Shown: positions 4,958-19,776, counted from the stretch's first letter. The stretch: DNA of 32,000 bases from Acaryochloris marina MBIC11017 (GCF_000018105.1 NC_009925.1:4140001-4172000); one strand, 5' to 3'. Numbers and translations are program-made. The notes: a model not told the origin generated them from the sequence alone.

Positions 4958-5812
4958 CTAGGCAGTAATCATGGTTCCAATCCCAGAATCGGTAAAAATT
5001 TCTAGCAGTAGGGCATGGGGGGCGCGACCATCAATAATATGGGCAGCTTGAATCCCTTGGGCTAAAGAGCGAATACAGCAGGTCACCTTTGGAATCATGC
5101 CTCCAGCTACAACCTCTGCTGCTATCAGCTCACGAGCCTGGCGAATATCCAGTTTGTGAATGAGGGATGTTGCGTCTTTATAGTCTTGAAGAATGCCTGG
5201 GGTATCCGTTAGTAGAATGAGTTTCTCAGCATCTAACGCAGCGGCGAGTTCTCCCGCGACGGTATCAGCATTAATGTTATAGACCTGTCCTTCTTCGTCG
5301 GTCGCCACACTGGACACGATGGGAATATGTCCCCCATCGAGCAGGTTATGGATCAGTTGGGGGTTTACTGAGGCCACCTCTCCTACAAACCCAATGCCAG
5401 ATTCTCCCTGGGGACGAGCCGTGAGTAACTTGCCGTCCTTGCCGCAGACGCCAACAGCCGATCCTCCGGCCTGGTTAATTAGGGAAACCAGTTCTTTATT
5501 CACTCGCCCCACCAACACCATCTCAACCACATCCATTGTTGGTGCATCGGTTACTCGCAAACCCTTCATAAACTGAGGCTCAATTCCCAACTTTTCCAGC
5601 CATAGATTAATTTCCGGTCCCCCGCCATGGACGAGGACAGGGCGTAGACCAACACAAGCCATAAACACCACATCCCGAATTACTGTGGCTTTAAGGGTGC
5701 TATCTTTCATGGCCGCCCCACCATATTTAACAACGACTGTGCGTCCAGCGAAGGATTGGATGTAAGGAAGAGCCTCACTTAATACTTGGACGCGATCGCT
5801 AGCGTTAAACAT
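4958..5812 (-). CDS. argB: N-acetylglutamate kinase
   Basis: [19 protein letters not shown] and [14 protein letters not shown] are amino-acid kinase family signatures. The ORF opens at TTG 5827; the first ATG (MFNASD) is at 5812. Confidence 0.93.
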
Positions 5813-6253
5813 GGGGTTGGGTGGCAAACAAAGAGAACAACGCGCAAACCATTGAACAGTAAAGGCTTGCCCATAGACAGCAGTTTAGCTCGTTATGGTA
5901 GGTGACCGTAAGCAGGTCATGCAAGCAAGCCTCATAGCTATGATTGACGCTCTCTGATGATCAGGAGAGGGATATCAACATCCGTCTTTAGTCGAGAACT
6001 TTTCAGGTCGGTTGAACGACTAAAAGGTATCCAGTTACGGCAGACTTCTTTTAGAGAAGAAAATATGATTTCCTCGTCATATCGTGTCAGTTATGGTGAG
6101 GTCATAGGTCTTTTTATGTTCTGAATTTTAATTTCCTTCATATAATCTTTTGAGAAATAATTTATATATTCTCTTAGGTGCTGTAGGCTTTTTAGAAATA
6201 ATTTTCCTGGAATACCTTCTGTGTTTTGACGAGTTAAAGTCATATTTTGTGGG

Positions 6254-6283
6254 TTGCATTACATGGTAATTGATGGTTATAAT
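6254..6283 (+). promoter_or_regulatory. Sigma70-type promoter candidate for cassette 1 (TTGCAT-18 bp-TATAAT)
   Basis: TTGCAT at 6254-6259 and TATAAT at 6278-6283. It sits 17 bp inside the start of the near-identical block and implies a 5' leader of about 390 nt before the A1 ATG. Confidence 0.45.
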
Positions 6284-6677
6284 TAGGTCATTAAAAGTAT
6301 TTTTACTCTAATAAATTTTAAGATAAAACTTATTATCATATCATTATTATTTCTGAAAACAATAAAATATAAGCATCTTTTTTATTCACTTAAGGAATAC
6401 TTAGAGAATCCTGAGAATCTTCTCAGAGTGGTTATTGTAATTACAGTGTTTAGTAGCTGTAGGCCCAATCATTCCTGACTAAATAATCTAGAAAGAAATA
6501 AAGGAGTCATGAGTTTTCTTTGTTTCTTTTGCTTGTTTATCCAATATTTGAAGCGTTGTGATGAACTGCTTCTCAAATATTTGAATGAAACTAAGCAGGA
6601 ATGATTGCCTATTTTGTTGGTGTGCAGCCCCGATTGCTTTGATCTCTAAAAATTTATTCACCTTAGTGAGGTTTAAT

Positions 6678-7127
6678 ATGAAAGCTCAACGCCTTCTACC
6701 CCTTTGCTCTGCTCTTTTCTTGGGTTTAGCTGCTGCTCCTGCCTTTGCAGGTTCTGCTAGTGTTTCCAACAGCTTCTCCATTCGTGATATCAAGAATGGT
6801 TATTCTCACACCAATATTAAAGTGAAAGAATGGTACGGCGGTATTCGTTCTGCTGGAGCCGATGCTAGCAAGGTATCTGTTGGTGTTACCACAACCCAGG
6901 ACGGTAGCACGACTACTCAGACTCAATATTGTGGTTGGGGTTGTAAGAAGTCTACGACTACAAACAACGGCCTATTTTCTGAAACAGATTACTCTGTTGC
7001 CACTTCTTCTAGCTGGTCCAAAGAGTACGGTGCATTCAAAAAAGACACTAACGTTCATGTTCATGAGAGCTATCACTTTGATGGCATCGACAAGACTCAC
7101 ACCGTTGGCTCTAGCTTCAGCTTCTAA
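6678..7127 (+). CDS. Small secreted protein A1 (149 aa, Ser/Thr/Gly-rich, CxxxC, C-terminal ...HTVGSSFSF); unknown family
   Basis: SD gtgagg lies 7 nt upstream of ATG 6678. Sec signal peptide MKAQRLLPLCSALFLGLAAAPAFA|GS. A paralogous copy is at 10214-10663. The 31-codon extension from 6585 in the ORF track has no RBS. Confidence 0.8.
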   Translation: MKAQRLLPLCSALFLGLAAAPAFAGSASVSNSFSIRDIKNGYSHTNIKVKEWYGGIRSAGADASKVSVGVTTTQDGSTTTQTQYCGWGCKKSTTTNNGLFSETDYSVATSSSWSKEYGAFKKDTNVHVHESYHFDGIDKTHTVGSSFSF

Positions 7128-7165
7128 ATCAAGCTAGCTGCTTCATATCTAAGCCAAACAAACAA

Positions 7166-7190
7166 GGGGCAGCAGCTAAGCTGTTGCCCC
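7166..7190 (+). terminator. Strong intercistronic hairpin after gene A1 (attenuator or RNA-stabilising stem)
   Basis: GGGGCAGCAGC-taa-GCTGTTGCCCC is an 11-bp stem with one G-U pair, followed by TTTGCTC (short U-tract). It is conserved identically at 10702-10726. Confidence 0.55.
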
Positions 7191-7215
7191 TTTGCTCAGC
7201 TCAGGAGAATTAATC

Positions 7216-7956
7216 ATGCGTTATCGTCTTGGGCTGTTGAGTACATCGGTTGTGGGAATGTTGACATTGTCATCTGGCTCAGTTTTAGCCCAAACGACAA
7301 ATAACATCACAGTACCTAACAACTCCCAATCAACAGCTAACCCTGAAGTCAGCCTTGATCAGCAGGGCTCATTAGTAAATACTCAGGTCAACAGTACAAC
7401 CTTAGGCCGCAGTGTTGTTGGCAACGGCATAGCAGACTGTACCAGTAATGGTTTAAGCGTGTCAGCCTATGGTAGTGGTGTCGGTCCCTTTGATACCGGT
7501 ACGGTTGGCGGTGCGATTACCTATACCCATTCTTTTGGGATGGATACCTGTAAGCAGTACGCCAAGAATCAATTAGGGAAAGCGAAGCTTGAAACCTGTT
7601 TTTTATTAATCAGTAACTATTCCAAAATGGTTAAAGCAGGTATTGATGTCAGCTATACAGCGCTGATGGAAGTGGCTAATGTTGACTGTCCACCTGTGAC
7701 AGTTCGTCAAGCTGCGATTCCTCAGCCCTCTCCTTCTGCCTCGAATCGTCCAGCATCGACTCCGGTTTCATTGCAAGGGCAGCAACCCGCTCCAACGCCT
7801 ACGGTGCGAGAGTATGGCAATAGTCCACAGAATCCACCTCAAGCGCAGACCCCATCCCCATCGGAGCCACAACTCAAGACAGCATTACCTAACTCAACTT
7901 CAGAGTTGCCTGCTGTTCAAGGGCCTCAACGATTGACGGCTAAAGAGTTGCTTTAA
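7216..7956 (+). CDS. Secreted protein B1 (246 aa; 4-Cys globular part plus Pro/Gln/Ser-rich C-terminal tail); unknown family
   Basis: SD aggag at 7203-7207. Signal peptide MRYRLGLLSTSVVGMLTLSSGSVLA|QT. The tail reads PQPSPSASNRPASTPVSLQGQQPAPTPT..PQNPPQAQTPSPSEPQ. Copy at 10752-11492. Confidence 0.8.
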   Translation: MRYRLGLLSTSVVGMLTLSSGSVLAQTTNNITVPNNSQSTANPEVSLDQQGSLVNTQVNSTTLGRSVVGNGIADCTSNGLSVSAYGSGVGPFDTGTVGGAITYTHSFGMDTCKQYAKNQLGKAKLETCFLLISNYSKMVKAGIDVSYTALMEVANVDCPPVTVRQAAIPQPSPSASNRPASTPVSLQGQQPAPTPTVREYGNSPQNPPQAQTPSPSEPQLKTALPNSTSELPAVQGPQRLTAKELL

Positions 7957-8175
7957 TGTCGATTCAGGGGATAACACTGTGTGTTGCCTACTTTGATTCT
8001 CTGTTGCGACCTAATCAGACCAAAAAGCATTGCTGTGAATTTCTGGCTTGATAGTATTTCCAGCGCTAAAGAAAGACTTTTATAGTCTGTGATTAAGCCA
8101 GCCACATATGACTGACTTCAGCTCCCAGGATTGAAATGTCTCGGACAGGCACCCCGAATAAGGAGGGCATGATTG

Positions 8176-8553
8176 ATGCAACTGAAACTAACACTTTATG
8201 GTGCTGTGGCCTATGCCGTTTTCAGTACATCACCTTGCTATGCCCAGATAGTGCATGTGATGACGTTTCAGAACTCGTCGGGTGGACGCCATATTAGAGA
8301 AATTACTGGCCAACAAACCCAGGATGATCAGTCCATTGGTGTTTCTCTCAATACGTCTGATGAGCGTACAACAACCCGTTCTTCGTCCACAGTGAATGGT
8401 GTAACCCAAGAGCAAACCTATACCTATATCAACTCAGCTAAGAGTCAGGCAGTAGAAACGGGGCATCGCAGAAGAATTGAACATACTCGGCTTTTTGAAG
8501 CGTATGACTATTCGGACTACGCTGTTGACCACACTGTCGATTTTAGTTTTTAA
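8176..8553 (+). CDS. Small secreted protein C1 (125 aa, C-terminal ...VDHTVDFSF), distant paralogue of A
   Basis: SD aggagg at 8161-8166. Signal peptide MQLKLTLYGAVAYAVFSTSPCYA|QI. It shares collinear motifs with A (IREI/IRDI, IGVS..TTT, E.Y.[YF]...HTV..FSF). Copy at 11753-12130. Confidence 0.8.
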   Translation: MQLKLTLYGAVAYAVFSTSPCYAQIVHVMTFQNSSGGRHIREITGQQTQDDQSIGVSLNTSDERTTTRSSSTVNGVTQEQTYTYINSAKSQAVETGHRRRIEHTRLFEAYDYSDYAVDHTVDFSF

Positions 8554-8707
8554 GTGCTAGTTGACTGCCTGGATACCCAATAGTCTCTACATCTATGGCG
8601 ATTCAGTGTGCTGACCTCAGCGAGCTGCTAGGGAAGATCACTCTTCTAACCCTTCAGTGTTTTCTGAAAACCCTACTCCAGGACAGTTGTTGCTAGGAGA
8701 TTTAACG

Positions 8708-8998
8708 ATGAAATCTACGATATTTTTAACGACAGTTATCACAGGGTTGAGTATTCTACCTGCCCAGGCTCAGACTCAGTCTTTCTTTGGGGTGCCCATT
8801 GGTCAAGATGTGCCAGTGATCGTCTTTTCCCCGGTGACTCAGTACTATCCGAACTATTATCCGGGACCTGGTTTTTACCAATATAGTCACTATTTTCGAA
8901 GCACAGAACACCATTTAGACTTTGATAAATATGACTACCTGCTCAGTGACGACTTGGTATACAACTTTCCCGTAGTCGGCAATTTTAATTACAAGTAA
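8708..8998 (+). CDS. Small secreted Tyr/Pro/Phe-rich protein D1 (96 aa); unknown family
   Basis: SD aggag at 8693-8697. Signal peptide MKSTIFLTTVITGLSILPAQA|QT. Aromatic low-complexity stretch YYPNYYPGPGFYQYSHYF. Copy at 12313-12603. Confidence 0.75.
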   Translation: MKSTIFLTTVITGLSILPAQAQTQSFFGVPIGQDVPVIVFSPVTQYYPNYYPGPGFYQYSHYFRSTEHHLDFDKYDYLLSDDLVYNFPVVGNFNYK

Positions 8999-9154
8999 TT
9001 CTGAAACGGCTGTAGATTTATGGTATCCGCCAATCCCTTGTATTCAGCGATTGCAGGTAGTGAGGGTTGGATGGCCTCAGTCTTCTTATAAATAGATGCT
9101 TTAAGAAAGTGGGCGGCAGCCTAAAAGTTTTCAGTTATTCTAAGCATTATGACT

Positions 9155-9185
9155 AGCGCTCGTTATTGCGAGCGCTTTTTGCTTT
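9155..9185 (+). terminator. Rho-independent terminator closing cassette 1
   Basis: agcgctcg-ttattg-cgagcgct is a perfect 8-bp GC-rich stem followed by tttttgcttt, about 155 bp after the D1 stop. Confidence 0.75.
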
Positions 9186-9789
9186 CAATTTTTTAAGAAA
9201 ACCATTTGACTTGCAGAATCATAAGGAACGATAGCCTCAATAGTTGCTGTATCTCAACAGTGCAAGATATTTCTGGTGACGTAACGATCGCGCTTATTTC
9301 TCGATCACGATCAGTAATTGATATGGAGCTACTGCGCTTTCTGCCCATAATAGTGTTAGATAGGTTGGTCACCCTGTAGATCAAGCACTTTACGATGCCT
9401 CAGTAGGTGCAGATCATGGGCGACGTTGTGTGTGGTTCAATTTTTATGGCTCGGCCTAATTTTCACTTTTCAAGTTTATGCAGCTAGATGTGATTGTTAT
9501 TGAAGAAGGTTCATTGACGCTTCACTAGAATGAACTTTTTAGATAGCTTGAACGACTAGAAAGGTATCAAGTGATGATCAATAATTTTTAGAGGCTAAAA
9601 TAAAATTATCTCGTCAGATTGTGTCAGTTATAGTGGGTCTCTAGGTCTTTTTGTGCTCTCTATTTTAATTTTCTTCATGCAATCTTTTCGTCAACAATCA
9701 ATGCCTTCTCTTTGTGTTGTAGGTATTTCAGGAGTTGTGAGCCTGAGATAACTCATGTATTTTATTGATTGAAAGTCATATTTTGTGGG

Positions 9790-9819
9790 TTGCATTACAT
9801 GGTAATTGATGGTTATAAT
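9790..9819 (+). promoter_or_regulatory. Sigma70-type promoter candidate for cassette 2 (identical to 6254-6283)
   Basis: TTGCAT at 9790-9795, 18-bp spacer, TATAAT at 9814-9819. Confidence 0.45.
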
Positions 9820-10213
9820 TAGGTCATTAAAAGTATTTTTACTCTAATAAATTTTAAGATAAAACTTGTTATCATATCATTATTATCTCTGAAAACAATA
9901 AAATATAAGCATCTTTTTTATTTACTTAAGGAATACTTAGAGAATCCTGAGAATCTTCTCAGAGTGGTTATTGTAATTACAGTGTTTAGTAGCTGTAGGC
10001 CCAATCATTCCTGACTAAACAATCTAGAAAGAAATAAAGGAGTCATGAGTTTTCTTTGTTTCTTTTGCTTGTTTATCCAATATTTGAAGCGTTGTGATGA
10101 ACTGCTTCTCAAATATTTGAATGAAACTAAGCAGGAATGATTGCCTATTTTGTCGGTGTGCAGCCCCGATTGCTTTGATCTCTAAAAATTTATTCACTTT
10201 AGTGAGGTTTAAT

Positions 10214-10663
10214 ATGAAAGCTCAACGCCTTCTACCCCTTTGCTCTGCACTTTTCTTAGGTTTAGCTGCTGCTCCTGCCTTTGCAGGATCTGCTAGTGTT
10301 TCCAACAGCTTCTCCATTCGTGATATCAAGAATGGTTATTCTCACACCAGTATTAATGTTAATGAGTGGTACGGCGGTTATCGTTCTGCTGGAGCTGATG
10401 CCAGCAAGGTATCTGTTGGCGTTACCACTACTAAAGACGGTAGTGCTACGACTCAAACTAAGTACTGTGGACGCAATTGCCGTAAGTCCACAACAACTTA
10501 CAACGGCCTGTTTTCTGAAACAGATTACTCTGTTGCCAAGTCTTCTAGCTGGTCAAGAGAATCCGGTTTATTTACAAAAGACACCAACGTTCATGTCTAT
10601 GAGAGCTATGACTTTGATGGCATCGACAAGACTCACACCGTTGGCTCTAGCTTCAGCTTCTAA
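10214..10663 (+). CDS. Small secreted protein A2 (149 aa), divergent allele-like paralogue of A1
   Basis: Same RBS, signal peptide and C-terminus as A1. There are 18 amino-acid replacements, all between residues 46 and 133. Confidence 0.8.
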   Translation: MKAQRLLPLCSALFLGLAAAPAFAGSASVSNSFSIRDIKNGYSHTSINVNEWYGGYRSAGADASKVSVGVTTTKDGSATTQTKYCGRNCRKSTTTYNGLFSETDYSVAKSSSWSRESGLFTKDTNVHVYESYDFDGIDKTHTVGSSFSF

Positions 10664-10701
10664 ATCAAGCTAGCTGCTTCATATCTAAGCCAAACAAACA
10701 A

Positions 10702-10726
10702 GGGGCAGCAGCTAAGCTGTTGCCCC
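10702..10726 (+). terminator. Intercistronic hairpin after gene A2
   Basis: Identical to 7166-7190. Confidence 0.55.
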
Positions 10727-10751
10727 TTTGCTCAGCTCAGGAGAATCAATC

Positions 10752-11492
10752 ATGCGTTATCGTCTTGGGCTGTTGAGTACATCGGTTGTGGGAATGTTGA
10801 CATTGTCATCAGGCTCAGTTTTAGCCCAAACGACAAATAGCATCACAGTACCTAACAACTCCCAATCAACAGCTAACCCTGAAGTCAATCTTGATCAGCA
10901 GGGCTCATTAGTAAATACTCAGGTCAACAGTACAACCTTAGGCCGCAGTGTTGTTGGCAACGGCATAGCAGACTGTACCAGTAATGGTTTAAGCGTGTCA
11001 GCCTATGGTAGTGGTGTCGGTCCCTTTGATACCGGTACGGTTGGAGGTGCGATTACCTATACCCATTCTTTTGGGATGGATACCTGTAAGCAGTACGCCA
11101 AGAATCAATTAGGGAAAGCGAAGCTTGAAACCTGTTTTCTGTTAATCAGTAACTATTCCAAAATGGTTAAAGCAGGTATTGATGTCAGCTATACAGCACT
11201 GATGGAAGTGGCTAATGTTGACTGTCCGCCTGTAACGGTTCGTCAAGCTGCGATTCCTCAGCCCTCTCCTTCTGCCTCGAATCGTCCGGTATCGCCTCCG
11301 GTTTCATTACAGGGGCAGCAACCTGCTCCAACGCCTACGGTGCGAGAGTATGGCAATAGTCCACAGAATCCACCTCAAGCGCAGACCCCATCTCCAGTAG
11401 AACCGCAACTCAAGACAGCATTACCTAACTCAACTTCGGAGTTGCCTGCTGTTCAAGGGCCTCAACGGTTGACGGCTAAAGAGTTGCTTTGA
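10752..11492 (+). CDS. Secreted protein B2 (246 aa)
   Basis: About 96.5% nt identity to B1 by manual alignment, with 5 aa replacements. Same RBS and signal peptide. Confidence 0.8.
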   Translation: MRYRLGLLSTSVVGMLTLSSGSVLAQTTNSITVPNNSQSTANPEVNLDQQGSLVNTQVNSTTLGRSVVGNGIADCTSNGLSVSAYGSGVGPFDTGTVGGAITYTHSFGMDTCKQYAKNQLGKAKLETCFLLISNYSKMVKAGIDVSYTALMEVANVDCPPVTVRQAAIPQPSPSASNRPVSPPVSLQGQQPAPTPTVREYGNSPQNPPQAQTPSPVEPQLKTALPNSTSELPAVQGPQRLTAKELL

Positions 11493-11752: not shown

Positions 11753-12130
11753 ATGCAGATGAAGCCAATACTTTATGGTGCTGTGGCCTATGCCGTTTTC
11801 AGTACATCACCCTGCTATGCCCAGATAGTGCACGTGATGACGTTTCAGAACTCATCGGGTGGACGCCATATTAGAGAAATTACAGGTCAACAAACCCAGG
11901 ATGATCAGTCCATTGGTGTTTCTCTCAATACGTCGGATGAGCGTACAACAACCCGCTCTTCGTCCACAGTGAATGGTGTGACCCAAGAGCAAACCTATAC
12001 ATACATTAACTCAGCTAAGAGTCAGGCAGTTGAAACGGGGCATCGCAGAAGAATTGAACGTACTCGGCTTTTTGAAGCGTATGACTATTCGGACTACGCT
12101 GTTGACCACACTGTCGATTTTAGTTTTTAA
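11753..12130 (+). CDS. Small secreted protein C2 (125 aa)
   Basis: SD ggaggg sits 8 nt upstream of ATG 11753. After the first 6 codons there are 13 nt differences from C1, 12 of them synonymous. Confidence 0.8.
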   Translation: MQMKPILYGAVAYAVFSTSPCYAQIVHVMTFQNSSGGRHIREITGQQTQDDQSIGVSLNTSDERTTTRSSSTVNGVTQEQTYTYINSAKSQAVETGHRRRIERTRLFEAYDYSDYAVDHTVDFSF

Positions 12131-12312: not shown

Positions 12313-12603
12313 ATGAAATCTACGATATTTTTAACGACAGTTATCACAGGGTTGAGTATTCTACCTGCCCAGGCTCAGACTCAGTCTTTCTTTGGGGTGC
12401 CCATTGGTCAAGATGTGCCAGTGATCGTCTTTTCCCCTGTAACTCAGTACTATCCGAACTATTATCCGGGACCTGGTTTTTACCAATATAGTCACTATTT
12501 TCGAAGCACAGAACACCATTTAGATTTTGATAGATATGACTACCTGCTTAGCGACGACTTGGTATACAACTTTCCGGTAGTCGGCAATTTTAATTACAAG
12601 TAA
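12313..12603 (+). CDS. Small secreted Tyr/Pro/Phe-rich protein D2 (96 aa)
   Basis: 7 nt differences from D1 and one replacement (K to R). Same RBS. Confidence 0.75.
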   Translation: MKSTIFLTTVITGLSILPAQAQTQSFFGVPIGQDVPVIVFSPVTQYYPNYYPGPGFYQYSHYFRSTEHHLDFDRYDYLLSDDLVYNFPVVGNFNYK

Positions 12604-12840: not shown

Positions 12841-13497
12841 ATGAAAGCATTTGTGGCTGGAGCAACGGGTCAAACGGGTCGCCGCATTGTGTCTCAATTA
12901 GTTGAGCGGGGTATTCCCGTGCGAGCTTTGGTTCGAGATATGGATAGAGCAAAAGCACTCTTACCGGAAGCTGCTGAGTTAGTGGTGGGCGATGTATTGG
13001 ATGCGAGTTCGTTGGAGGATGCGATCGCAGATTGTAACGTCCTCCTTTGCGCCACCGGAGCGGCTCCTGGCTTTAATCCGTTTGCACCCCTACAAATTGA
13101 TTATCTGGGGACCAAAAACTTAGTAGATGTGGCCAAAGCTAAAAACATTGAGCATTTTGTTTTGGTGTCTTCCCTGTGTACATCGAAGCTGCTGCATCCC
13201 CTGAATCTGTTCTTCTTGGTATTGGTTTGGAAGAAGCAGGCCGAACAATATATTCAAAATAGCGGGCTCACCTATACCATCGTCCGTCCCGGCGGCCTGA
13301 AGAACGAGGATAATGATAATTCCGTCGTCATGTCTGCCCCCGATACTTTATTTGAAGGCAGCATTCCCCGGACCAAAGTGGCTGAAGTTTGTATTGAAGC
13401 CCTGACGGCTGCATCCTCTCACAATAAGATTGTTGAAATCGTTGCCCCGTCTGAAGCGTTAGACCGACCAATCCCTGACTTATTTGCTAGTGTTTAA
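12841..13497 (+). CDS. NAD(P)H-binding atypical SDR / NmrA-like protein
   Basis: N-terminal Rossmann motif MKAFVAGATGQTGRRIV. VSSL and RPGGL segments are typical of NAD(P)-binding (NAD_binding_10-type) proteins. Confidence 0.8.
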   Translation: MKAFVAGATGQTGRRIVSQLVERGIPVRALVRDMDRAKALLPEAAELVVGDVLDASSLEDAIADCNVLLCATGAAPGFNPFAPLQIDYLGTKNLVDVAKAKNIEHFVLVSSLCTSKLLHPLNLFFLVLVWKKQAEQYIQNSGLTYTIVRPGGLKNEDNDNSVVMSAPDTLFEGSIPRTKVAEVCIEALTAASSHNKIVEIVAPSEALDRPIPDLFASV

Positions 13498-17403: not shown

Positions 17404-19776
17404 ATGGCCACGAGATCGCTAGCAGCAACCCCAAAAGGCATCGAAATAATTGAAAGAGCCTTGATGGATAAGCAATGGGGGTGTGATGATCTCAAGAAGC
17501 AGTGTGATTGTAGCCGCCAGCCTGCTGTTAAGTTCTGTGCAGGCAAAAACGTCGATAGAAAGCTTTTTGTTGGTTTTTGCAAAGTATTAGAGCTGGACTG
17601 GGAAGAAATTTCAGGTATTAAGACTGCTTCAGAAGTAGCTGAAACGACTCAGGTTGCAACTGATATAAATACGCTTGTCCAAAAGATTCGTCAGAAAGTA
17701 AAAGCTGATATTCACCATCGCTGTGGCACGATGCGGGTGCTGGATATGGAGCAGCCGATTGGACTGGGTGAAATTTATACTCGCGTCAATATTCTTGAGA
17801 AACTATCTGGAAGGCAGCGTTTAAGGGTTGATGAGCTATGGCAAGATTGCAATATTGATAACTTTGATCGGTGGCTGCTAGGACAGGTGCGTGTCAAACG
17901 AGTACCGGGATTAGAAGCGGTTGAACGTTATAACAAGCTGCTGATTTTAGGTAAGCCTGGAGCGGGTAAAACCACTTTTATGAAGCGGTTAGCAACCCAA
18001 TGCAATCAGGGAAAGTTTGAAGCTTACCGAATTCCTGTGTTTGTCACCCTGAAAGAATTTGCTGAAGCGCCAGGTAAACCCGATTTGCAAAGCTATATTT
18101 TCCAGCAATGGGGAACTTGTGAAATTGAGGAAAATGCTCTTGGCCAGGTTCTAAAAACTGGTCATGTTCTGATTTTATTGGATGGTCTAGATGAAGTTCA
18201 GGCTACGGATCATGATCGGGTTTTGAATTCAATTAAGACATTTACTGAACAGTTTCGCGACTGCCAGTTTGTGATGACTTGTCGGATTGCCGCTCGCGAA
18301 TATACATTTGAGCAGTTTACGGAAGTGGAAGTTGCTGATTTTAACGAAGAGCAAATAGAAGACTTTGCTACCAAGTGGTTTAGAACTAAGCAAGATCCTG
18401 AAAAGGGTGAAAATTTCATCAAACGCTTGCAGGAAAATAAGCCAATTCAAGAGCTAGCAACTAATCCTTTATTGCTGACATTGCTGTGTTTGGTATTCGG
18501 TGAGGCCAATGATTTTCCCCATAATCGTTCAGAGCTTTATAAGGAAGGGCTAGATGTTCTGCTGAAAAAATGGGATGGCAAACGCAATATTGAACGCGAT
18601 CAGGTTTACAAAAAACTGTCCTTGCAGCGTAAAGAAGATCTGTTGAGTCAATTGGCTTATCAAACCTTTGAGCAAGGAGACTACTTTTTTAAACAACGAG
18701 TCATTGAAACTAAAATCATTGACTATATCCGTAATTTGCCAGGTGCTAATGAAGATGAAGAAGCGCTTCAACTGGATAGCGAAGCTGTGCTCAAGTCAAT
18801 TGAAGCCCAGCATGGCCTGCTAGTGGAAAGGGCTAGGGGGATTTATTCCTTCTCACACTTAACTTTTCAAGAATATTTCACGGCTAAACAAATTACTTGT
18901 CCTACTTCTCAACTTCCTAAAGCCCTAGAAAATCTCGCAAAACATTGTTTGGAAAAACGTTATCGAGAGGTCTTTTTTCTTGTTGTAGGAATGTTGCCTG
19001 AAGCCGATGATTTTTTCAGACTGCTCAAAATCCAGATTGATCGATTAATCGCTGATGAACCTAATTTACAAGAGTTTTTGGTTTGGGGTTCTGGAAAAGC
19101 TCAATCAGTTAATGCTGACTATAAATCAGAAGCAATCCGGGCTTACTACCTCTACCTCGCCCTCGCCCGCGCCCGCGCCCGCGCCCGCGACCTCAACCTT
19201 GACCGCGCCCTCGCCCGCGCCCGCGCCCTCAACCTCGCCCTCGCCCGCGCCCGCGCCCTCGCCCGCGACCTCGACCTCGCCCTCGACCTCGCCCTCAATC
19301 TTGACCGCGCCCTCGCCCGCGCCCTCGACCTCGCCCGCGACCTCAACCTCGCCCGCGACCTCAACCTCTACCTCGCCCTCGACCTCACCCTCGACCTCTA
19401 CCTCGCCCTCGACCACGCCCTCGACCAACTAACCAAAATTGAGTCAAAAGGAAAAGATGATCCCGAAATTCTTATTAAATTAAGAGCATTACAATCTCAA
19501 CTCCCTGATTTACAGGACATTCAAGCTTTCAGCAGTTGGTGGAAAGATATGGGAGAATCTTGGATCAAAAATTTGCGCCAAGTCATGATTGACCATCGCA
19601 ATATTGGTCATTATTGGCAATTCACCCCAGCCCAAACGGAAAAACTGCAGCAGTATTTTGAGACCAATCAATTATTGGTTGATTGCCTCAATAGCGATTG
19701 CTACGTCACCAAGGCCACTCGCGAGGAGATCCTGTCAACTTTGCTATTACCGATAAGTGAACTGGAGAAGCAGTAG
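17404..19776 (+). CDS. NACHT-family STAND NTPase with N-terminal HTH-like module, C-terminal dipeptide-repeat array and conserved tail
   Basis: Walker A LILGKPGAGKTTFMKRL, Walker B VLILLDGLDEV, and NACHT-typical FVMTCRI, NPLLLTLLC and HLTFQEYF. The N-terminal approx 65 aa (SLAATPKGIEIIERAL..CSRQPAVKFCAG..VDRKLFVGFCKVLELDWEEI) resembles the module found at the N-terminus of many cyanobacterial NACHT/WD40 proteins. Confidence 0.9.
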   Translation: MATRSLAATPKGIEIIERALMDKQWGCDDLKKQCDCSRQPAVKFCAGKNVDRKLFVGFCKVLELDWEEISGIKTASEVAETTQVATDINTLVQKIRQKVKADIHHRCGTMRVLDMEQPIGLGEIYTRVNILEKLSGRQRLRVDELWQDCNIDNFDRWLLGQVRVKRVPGLEAVERYNKLLILGKPGAGKTTFMKRLATQCNQGKFEAYRIPVFVTLKEFAEAPGKPDLQSYIFQQWGTCEIEENALGQVLKTGHVLILLDGLDEVQATDHDRVLNSIKTFTEQFRDCQFVMTCRIAAREYTFEQFTEVEVADFNEEQIEDFATKWFRTKQDPEKGENFIKRLQENKPIQELATNPLLLTLLCLVFGEANDFPHNRSELYKEGLDVLLKKWDGKRNIERDQVYKKLSLQRKEDLLSQLAYQTFEQGDYFFKQRVIETKIIDYIRNLPGANEDEEALQLDSEAVLKSIEAQHGLLVERARGIYSFSHLTFQEYFTAKQITCPTSQLPKALENLAKHCLEKRYREVFFLVVGMLPEADDFFRLLKIQIDRLIADEPNLQEFLVWGSGKAQSVNADYKSEAIRAYYLYLALARARARARDLNLDRALARARALNLALARARALARDLDLALDLALNLDRALARALDLARDLNLARDLNLYLALDLTLDLYLALDHALDQLTKIESKGKDDPEILIKLRALQSQLPDLQDIQAFSSWWKDMGESWIKNLRQVMIDHRNIGHYWQFTPAQTEKLQQYFETNQLLVDCLNSDCYVTKATREEILSTLLLPISELEKQ
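19147..19425 (+). repeat. In-frame hexanucleotide microsatellite-like array (about 46 units, consensus RMC-CKC) inside the NACHT gene
   Basis: Units are GCCCGC, GCCCTC, GACCTC, AACCTC, GACCGC and TACCTC. They encode YLYLALARARARARDLNLDRALARARALNL...LALDHALD. The stretch is visibly GC-rich (about 70-75%) and has no stops in several frames on both strands. Confidence 0.95.

Follow-up and report, generated by a model that had tools for sequence, protein, structure and literature searches.

Two tandem four-gene cassettes (A–D) sit between argB and an SDR gene in the window, that is, the whole stretch of 32,000 nucleotides of Acaryochloris marina MBIC11017 analysed here. The genes and hairpins of the region are the following.

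4958–5827, minus strand: argB, 5′ neighbour of the cassette pair
6678–7127, plus strand: gene A1, encoding a 149-aa signal-peptide protein; copy 2 (A2) at 10214–10663
7164–7192, plus strand: GC-rich hairpin with U-rich tail between A and B, with compensatory changes in lineages
7216–7956, plus strand: gene B1, signal peptide; copy 2 at 10752–11492
8176–8553, plus strand: gene C1, signal peptide; copy 2 at 11753–12130
8708–8998, plus strand: gene D1, signal peptide; copy 2 at 12313–12603
9155–9176, plus strand: intrinsic terminator-like hairpin with T-run, end of operon copy 1
12841–13497: NAD-binding SDR gene, 3′ neighbour of the cassette pair

All four cassette products carry a signal peptide at their start, A and C are distant paralogs, and gene A, the product of which is the presumed major secreted subunit, is conserved at both ends and hypervariable in its middle. 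Profile searches in Pfam, NCBIfam, PHROGs and PDB gave no usable match for proteins A–D, and AlphaFold2 models of A (pLDDT 44.7, 11-sequence alignment) and B (pLDDT 45.3, 20 sequences) were uninformative. Neither the operon nor the promoter–leader module in front of it carries any annotation, and neither the leader nor protein B was found in a plasmid collection. The hairpin between A and B is kept, with compensatory changes, in every lineage, the distant L003 included, and is likely an attenuator, through which more of A than of B–D would be made; an attenuator after a subunit gene is the arrangement typical of major-subunit genes. It is solely because of this attenuator that we take gene A to be probably the highest-expressed gene of the operon.

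Protein B matches a hypothetical protein from Acaryochloris sp. CCMEE 5410 at 99.6% identity, and since the locus of that strain (L019) is 95–97% identical to the window in DNA and differs in copy spacing, the window comes from a sister strain sharing the duplication. At the duplication junction, a 520-nt spacer (8999–9531) matches neither flank, so the duplication is not a simple recent tandem copy. The A–B(–C–D) cassette is present in Acaryochloridaceae and in Thermosynechococcaceae relatives, often adjoining argB and often with two or three A genes in tandem.

Divergence between the two cassette copies

The stretch directly upstream of gene A (6237–6677) and its counterpart in copy 2 (9773–10213, offset 3536) mismatch at 6 of 441 positions and are thus 98.6% identical; the six mismatches (6332, 6351, 6387, 6484, 6618 and 6662) are all transitions, and there are no indels. 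GC content is 29.5% in this leader region against 47.8% in the whole window. An earlier note, made from the sequence alone, had given 6 differences in 441 bp and about 30% GC, both of which are reproduced by our counts, and its claim that the leader is more conserved than neighbouring synonymous sites is upheld, with 39 of 330 synonymous sites of B, C and D differing (Fisher p=6e-10). Gene A differs between the copies at 54 of 450 nt, where about 55 had been claimed. The copies of gene C differ at 18 nt, 14 synonymous and 4 nonsynonymous, where the note had counted 12 synonymous changes. Upstream of the leader, 23 of 59 nt are mismatched at 6177–6235, and 5996–6176 aligns at about 75–85% identity with indels; the drop to about 75% given in the note is confirmed as a drop.

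As a conserved stretch the leader is confirmed by these counts but is not unique. Near-identity extends beyond 6677 into gene A, where 3 of the next 135 nt mismatch up to about 6812. Divergence is low again at about 7075–7600, over the end of A, the A–B spacer and codons 1–120 of B; this second tract has 3 synonymous differences in 87, not significantly different from the leader (p=0.17), and the leader is therefore not the sole low-divergence piece of the duplication. Copy-to-copy divergence is a mosaic overall: the middle of gene A reaches a pS of about 0.45, and the B–C and C–D spacers barely align.

Purifying selection on the promoter–leader–start module

Constraint and conversion look alike within one genome, and it is orthologous single-copy loci that separate them. 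The syntenic locus (argB, A–B–C–D, SDR) was retrieved from about nine further Acaryochloris lineages, with L018, L021, L022, L023 and L042 coming from Logan assemblies, L001 and L002 from MAGs, and L039 and L041 from ENA assemblies; most of them carry a single cassette. The stretch upstream of gene A aligns nearly gap-free in all retrieved lineages, with 330 of 510 alignment columns invariant over 12 sequences and just 6 small indel events. Between the window and other lineages, leader identity is 82–93% where pS is 0.30–0.72, as can be seen from the following comparisons.

L018 versus window: leader 90.7%, pooled pS 0.30
L023 versus window: leader 92.7%, pooled pS 0.57
L021 versus window: leader 82.8%, pooled pS 0.58
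L022 versus window: leader 81.9%, pooled pS 0.64
L039 versus window: leader 88.2%, pooled pS 0.72

For the window and L023 the proteins are strongly diverged (A pN 0.32, C pN 0.30) and the leader has changed by 7%. A sliding-window profile ranks the leader highest within the locus for most pairs of lineages, and the other spacers, which cannot be aligned, score 2–60%; the exception is the pair of the window and L018, in which parts of A and the A–B/B 5′ region reach 97–100% versus 80–98% for the leader. The comparison with CCMEE 5410, which is unsaturated, gives 10 differences in 883 leader positions versus 47 in 861 synonymous sites (ratio about 0.2), so that in this closest strain pair synonymous sites have diverged about 5 times as fast as the leader. 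Leader divergence rises broadly with distance, from about 1% in the sister strain to 7–18% in deeper lineages, and is not strictly ranked by pS, L023 and L039 being less divergent than their pS predicts. In every lineage conservation sets in at 6236, 18 nt upstream of the −35 box, continues unbroken up to and past the start of gene A, and reaches about 50 nt into the gene (about codon 16), synonymous sites included. The abrupt start of near-identity just upstream of the promoter, previously described for the two copies, thus proves to be an edge common to all lineages, and the proposal of a long, functionally constrained leader gains support from other genomes, the leader being conserved in the about nine lineages far above synonymous sites and also above the cassette proteins.

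An nhmmer search with the leader profile against the A–B loci of other genera (L003–L017) returned no homolog, except for the start-codon region of second A paralogs, and a metagenome scan with the invariant 18-mer GCCTATTTTGTNGGTGTGC gave 15 matches, none of which is the leader by nhmmer. By these sequence searches the leader is not detectable beyond the A. marina complex. In three Thermosynechococcaceae-type loci (L008, L009 and L010) the first A gene is preceded by a different region of about 460 nt that is conserved among the three, so a long leader seems to be a recurrent property of the operon family, and its sequence clade-specific. The element is confined to one genus-level clade.

That one leader recently overwrote the other by gene conversion or homogenisation, with no special function behind their identity, is very improbable as an overall account, though it has points in its favour. 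The same question has been asked in this genus by Miller et al. 2011, who considered conversion and slow evolution for low-divergence Acaryochloris duplicates and favoured slow evolution for most pairs (PMC3156569); their pairs are coding sequences only, without any non-coding leader, whereas the leader here is non-coding. Only about 3% of Acaryochloris duplicate pairs are in tandem, and these genomes are rich in duplicates, some paralog pairs of which cluster by strain (PMC3156569), as conversion would have it. The mosaic of copy divergence with its abrupt edges and second low-divergence tract (7075–7600) points the same way, and so does 6753–6813, which is identical between the copies yet variable between species. 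When both copies from the window strain and from CCMEE 5410 are compared in a four-sequence test over the whole cassette, 275 sites group by copy and just 5 by genome. The duplication is therefore older than the separation of these two strains, in which conversion has been rare ever since. The leader holds just 3 informative sites in this test, 2 of which (6503 and 6542) group by genome and 1 by copy, which makes some homogenisation likely. The copy-to-copy leader/synonymous ratio is 0.085–0.115, about half the shallow orthologous ratio (about 0.2), and by arithmetic from the counts about 12–16 leader differences are expected from the orthologous ratio versus the 6 seen; a short homogenised patch has probably lowered the count further. 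Conversion as the main cause is nevertheless rejected, since the leader is equally conserved between single-cassette species and the 5′ edge of copy identity is also the edge of interspecies conservation. A boundary that falls on the same base in all lineages marks where constraint sets in, and not where a recombination tract ended. Because the leader is conserved across lineages with a fixed onset, purifying selection is the main cause of the copy-to-copy identity, to which conversion added at most a short patch. Throughout the Acaryochloris marina complex such selection acts strongly on the promoter–leader–start module, which begins 18 nt before the −35 box and ends at about codon 16 of A.

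Promoter, leader anatomy and predicted folding

The module divides into the following parts, all on the plus strand.

6236–6253, plus strand: conserved block directly upstream of the −35 box, seen in alignment, repeat and mismatch map; contains TATTTTGTGGGT, recurring at 6610–6621
6254–6283, plus strand: promoter P1, sigma-70-type, TTGCAT-18-TATAAT, with −35 at 6254–6259 and −10 at 6278–6283
6290–6677, plus strand: predicted 5′ untranslated leader of A1, 388 nt, its start near 6290 placed from P1
6290–6400, plus strand: AU-rich 5′ part of the leader, 16% GC
6411–6612, plus strand: central self-complementary part of the leader
6459–6477, plus strand: 5′ arm of a long-range inverted repeat, GTAGGCCCAATCATTCCTG, pairing with 6596–6612
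6491–6530, plus strand: purine-rich/pyrimidine-rich hairpin with an invariant ATG (6509) in its loop; 3 pairs of this helix (helix 10) have changes on both sides
6540–6584, plus strand: hairpin on the repeated motif AATATTTGAA, which is also a sub-threshold 'mir-85' match
6596–6612, plus strand: 3′ arm of the long-range inverted repeat, CAGGAATGATTGCCTAT, pairing with 6459–6477
6613–6677, plus strand: open translation-initiation part of the leader
6613–6725, plus strand: translation-initiation region, with hairpin UCAC-CUUA-GUGA (6658–6669), SD GAGG (6668–6671), ATG (6678) and the first 16 codons of A
9772–10213, plus strand: promoter and predicted leader of copy 2, with −35 at 9790–9795, −10 at 9814–9819 and leader at 9826–10213

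Promoter P1 has sigma-70-type hexamers at 18-nt spacing, conserved relative to the spacer, and is identical in copy 2 (9790–9819). Over the 12 sequences the −10 block TGGTTATAAT and the TGGT preceding the −10 box are invariant, TTGCAT has changed once (in L042), and 9 of the 18 spacer columns vary; judged from sequence, such near-invariant hexamers around a hypervariable spacer are the classical signature of a working promoter, and they bear out the TTGCAT-18-TATAAT promoter proposed in the earlier note. A consensus promoter scanner listed other sites and not P1, possibly owing to its scoring rule. The block at 6236–6253 could serve as an UP element or bind a regulator. At 6250–6265, TGTGG-N6-TTACA combines a GTN10AC core with half an HLR1 repeat, by comparison with the HLR1 consensus as it is quoted in PMC11633204; an NtcA-, CRP- or HLR1-type site at the promoter was rejected, its position relative to the −10 box being, by eye, off the canonical activator geometry.

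The arms at 6459–6477 and 6596–6612 share a perfect 12-nt core, and RNAalifold predicts between them a helix of 17 pairs in which 98% of cells are paired, with 5 one-sided changes to G·U and 2 pairs that break. This helix would enclose the hairpins at 6491–6530 and 6540–6584, and a further hairpin is predicted at 6411–6426. The 6540–6584 hairpin has one compensated pair each in L039 (AU to GC) and L002 (GC to AU). In L002 the 3′ arm is kept though the 5′ arm has been replaced, and pairing therefore cannot be the sole reason for the conservation of the arms. Pairing is also predicted between 6388–6397 and codons 13–16 of gene A. Two repeats lie in the leader region, TATTTTGTNGGT at 6243 and 6610, and TTTATTCACYTTAG at 6381 and 6653.

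Towards the gene, 30-nt windows over 6595–6710 have 67–87% of their columns invariant, 14 consecutive invariant bases run from the ATG, and gene A shows suppressed synonymous change up to codon 16. Although the final 147 nt form the most invariant part, in four lineages they are not more structured than shuffles (z of +1.2, −0.4 for L039, +1.1 and +1.8). The SD is predicted to be mostly paired, partly through the 4-bp hairpin UCAC-CUUA-GUGA, with a predicted P(unpaired) of 0.07–0.27 in all 12 sequences versus a mean of 0.41, and GAUCUCU (6641–6649) can pair with either 6401–6410 or the SD region, both helices being invariant and weak.

Measured against dinucleotide shuffles, the whole leader has MFE z-scores of −1.9 to −3.4 in six lineages; as a test of strand these scores do not discriminate, the minus strand folding as well as the plus. 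In the predicted structure 95.5% of cells are paired. The check for covariation in orthologous leaders that the earlier note had called for gives a divided answer. On the one side, 7 pairs have changed on both sides, versus 2.9±1.2 in shuffles (2 of 500 reach it) and 0–4 in slid controls, the structure being derived from the same alignment, and transitions in Watson–Crick pairs lead to G·U 29 times versus A·C 15 times (one-sided p=0.024). On the other side, the predicted pairs hold 24 transversion mismatches and most pairs never vary. Variable columns make up 31% of the paired versus 38% of the unpaired, and the alignment, with a mean column identity of 92%, is too similar for a decisive covariation test. 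Taken from these predictions, support for an RNA structure is modest.

No ORF is conserved across the lineages on either strand, in agreement with the earlier reading of the region as devoid of a plausible long ORF: a 31-codon ORF at 6509 has an invariant ATG and measures 31, 13 or 5 codons by lineage through a 1-nt indel, and an antisense 57-codon ORF (6488–6661) is broken by indels in several. Leader-peptide attenuation finds no counterpart here, the short ORF at 6509 not being conserved and no conserved terminator lying behind it. Rfam gave no match at gathering thresholds over the whole window. At E≤10 over 5800–10400 it returned just mir-85, a snoRNA and an Enterococcus sRNA, more than 30 bits below threshold, and the best of the sub-threshold matches are implausible eukaryotic families with E of at least 0.3. 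The leaders of other clades and of eight related loci gave nothing in Rfam.

Proposed function and comparison with known systems

The leader is probably a new regulatory element. We lean, on the strength of sequence comparison, towards reading the 441 bp as the promoter (6254–6283) followed by a 5′ untranslated leader of gene A of about 390 nt that would act in cis mostly at the RNA level. RNA-level function is favoured and is not proven, because covariation is weak. The transcript would begin with the AU-rich 5′ segment, followed by a central domain closed by the 6459–6477/6596–6612 helix around its two hairpins, and then by a sequence-invariant, largely open ribosome-binding region with the SD half-buried in the 4-bp hairpin. 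Folded domain and ribosome-binding region together would set the stability of the gene A mRNA and the initiation of its translation, the leader possibly being bound by a trans-acting RNA or protein, and the conserved hairpin behind gene A would lower the expression of B–D. A bolder version, which we entertain only tentatively, is that the leader forms a large cis-acting RNA domain (about 400 nt) of a kind not described before, peculiar to a rapidly evolving operon for secreted proteins in Chl d cyanobacteria and relatives of theirs, serving as a sensor or as a processive-antitermination/stability element that would also govern read-through of the post-A hairpin. If true, related genera would have clade-specific, functionally equivalent long leaders.

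Much of the same evidence can be read as control at the level of DNA, with the 440 bp an array of protein-binding sites, maybe with two promoters or a repression loop; this is the main and still serious rival, though we consider it rather unlikely. TATTTTGTNGGT lies both just upstream of the −35 box (6243–6254) and at 6610–6621, 367 bp or, by arithmetic, about 35 helical turns apart, and the downstream one could belong to a proximal promoter or be a further operator; examined as an operator pair, TATTTTGTGGGT at 6243 and TATTTTGTTGGT at 6610 are both invariant, but a 12-nt repeat with one mismatch may be chance in AT-rich DNA. Further repeats fall within invariant blocks, spacing is kept with so few and small indels, and the very AT-rich 6290–6400 may resemble the targets of nucleoid proteins. 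That unpaired columns are as conserved as paired ones, that the folding excess is equal on both strands and that the gene-proximal region is unstructured yet most conserved also sit well with binding sites in DNA. Against them stand about 50 nt of coding synonymous sites and the SD inside the block, as for a translation-initiation signal, and the plus-strand transitions, which lead to G·U more often than to A·C. Variation is found, moreover, in the P1 spacer but not between the putative proximal −35-like and −10-like boxes. A separate gene inside the leader, with P1 driving a small RNA or a small protein or uORF that ends before A, and A having its own proximal promoter, is more doubtful still. 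It could draw on the invariant ATG at 6509 with an AAGGAG-like box upstream in some lineages, on a 13-codon ORF at 6601–6642 (MIAYFVGVQPRLL) kept in most lineages with several silent changes, and on weak terminator-like hairpins at 6411–6426 and 6616–6634. The 6509 ORF, however, is cut to 13 or 5 codons by a frame shift in four lineages with no break in nucleotide conservation, the 6601 ORF has, as read from the sequence, no usable SD spacing and is shortened in L039, a conserved U-tract is lacking from both hairpins (the tail in L001 is AAAAGC), and conservation runs continuously through the start of gene A.

Read as an RNA leader of gene A, the element fits a known kind, the long conserved 5′ leader, which is common in bacteria, but no described family, and its closest analogues are functional and not homologous. 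The csgD 5′ UTR of the E. coli curli system is about 150 nt long, and the predicted leader here, of about 390 nt, is longer. Like that UTR and the csgDEFG–csgBAC intergenic control region, it is unusually long, AT-rich and conserved and stands ahead of an operon that encodes secreted extracellular proteins, but it leads directly into the structural gene, where csgD codes for a regulator. At least seven small RNAs repress the csgD leader (PMC6061853), which is a precedent for a leader whose primary sequence is conserved because it serves as a binding platform rather than as a compact fold. There is no sequence or protein homology between the two systems, A–D having no Pfam, NCBIfam or PDB matches. 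We know of no small RNA or regulator for the A–D locus. The E. coli ompA 5′ UTR is a stabilising leader, and it and the Lactobacillus slpA leader are about 130–200 nt long. Both, like the leader here, are long, precede an abundant secreted structural protein (abundance being presumed for A) and have 5′ stem-loops and an open, efficient ribosome-binding region; they share no sequence similarity with the leader here, which has no Rfam match. The slpA leader is used to raise protein output (Narita 2006, cited in PMC3666127). The operon also recalls the attenuation of pap/fim major-subunit genes in its conserved ends and hypervariable middle, sometimes tandem copies, and a GC-rich hairpin before accessory genes; no chaperone, usher or pilin domain was detected in A–D, and the likeness is one of operon logic only. 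With the riboswitches and RNA thermometers of Rfam 15 the leader shares its 5′ UTR position, conservation above coding sequence and a predicted partly occluded SD, but no cis-regulatory family reaches its gathering score and covariation is too sparse to define an aptamer. The leader is 2–4 times longer than typical riboswitches.

The four signal peptides, the hypervariable middle of the putative subunit, the tandem subunit genes and the likely attenuator after the subunit gene are typical of an operon that encodes a structure on the cell surface or outside the cell and evolves under diversifying selection. A promoter–leader–start module of about 500 bp has stayed nearly fixed while the proteins that it drives diverged to 50–70% identity. 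The leader is a candidate new RNA family for curation, and it offers a handle on when Acaryochloris makes this structure and on what regulates it.

A candidate conversion tract, recombination and the duplication junction

A second tract of low divergence between the two copies of the A-B-C-D cassette lies at 7075-7600 and comprises the end of gene A, the A-B spacer and codons 1-120 of gene B, with synonymous changes at 3/87. This tract shows no special conservation when compared with L023, another Acaryochloris lineage, which makes it a better candidate than the gene A leader for an old conversion tract. Comparison of the window strain with its sister strain CCMEE 5410 (locus L019) gives a proportion of synonymous differences (pS) of 0.60 for argB (4958-5827 versus L019 7747-8601), whereas the cassette genes beside it give 0.00-0.10. 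The argB of the window is nearer to that of L018, a further Acaryochloris lineage, than to that of CCMEE 5410, and together these values indicate a strain-level recombination mosaic with a breakpoint within the argB-A spacer. The two cassette copies are separated by the following element:

8999-9531, inter-cassette spacer of 520 nt, containing a terminator at 9155-9176

No similarity was found between this spacer and either the argB side or the sequence downstream of D2, so the junction of the duplication is no simple tandem join of recent origin.

Elsewhere in the window, a 790-aa ORF (17404-19776) contains a tandem repeat of 12/18-nt units at 19106-19444, coding for low-complexity repeats of the LALARA/LDLAL type. 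In L019, the neighbouring gene has a NACHT domain.

Sequences upstream of A genes

The -35 box of the leader promoter is overlapped by a palindrome-like site, TGTGG-N6-TTACA (6250-6265), which in L023 reads GTA-N8-TAC. The site, whose core is GTN10AC, resembles those of the CRP/NtcA family, but its centre lies nearer to the -10 box than that of a canonical activator site would. Thermosynechococcaceae-type loci possess a conserved upstream region of their own (about 460 nt, 78% column identity), located 5' of the A gene that comes first in a set of three:

L008 2244-2706
L009 7805-8285
L010 1-458

In these regions the box TTGAC(G/T) stands some 300 nt 5' of the ATG, and their likeness to the Acaryochloris leader is confined to the SD-proximal UCAYYYAGUGRKG. 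In some lineages the first A gene is immediately followed by another (L002 1113-1508, L022 4535-4939); what this second gene shares with the leader module is limited to about 10 nt before it and about 60 nt around its start, and does not include the leader itself.

The A-B hairpin and variability of gene A

The A-B spacer holds a GC-rich hairpin followed by a U-rich tail (stem arms AAGGGGCAGCAGC / GCUGUUGCCCCUU):

7164-7192, copy 1
10700-10728, copy 2

The hairpin is preserved in all lineages compared, distant L003 included, with compensatory stem changes, and is likely an attenuator through which A would be made in excess over B-D. In L041, another Acaryochloris lineage, a DDE-transposase insertion sequence (5979-7625) lies within gene B; leader and gene A are intact despite it.

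In an alignment covering gene A, the signal peptide, the first 20 mature residues and the C-terminal 25 residues (ending ...HTVGSSFSF) are conserved, while the middle (6814-7074) is hypervariable and indel-rich, and it is here that divergence between the two copies peaks (pS about 0.45; nonsynonymous proportion, pN, about 0.15). This pattern hints at a subunit that is exposed on the surface and evolves under diversifying selection.
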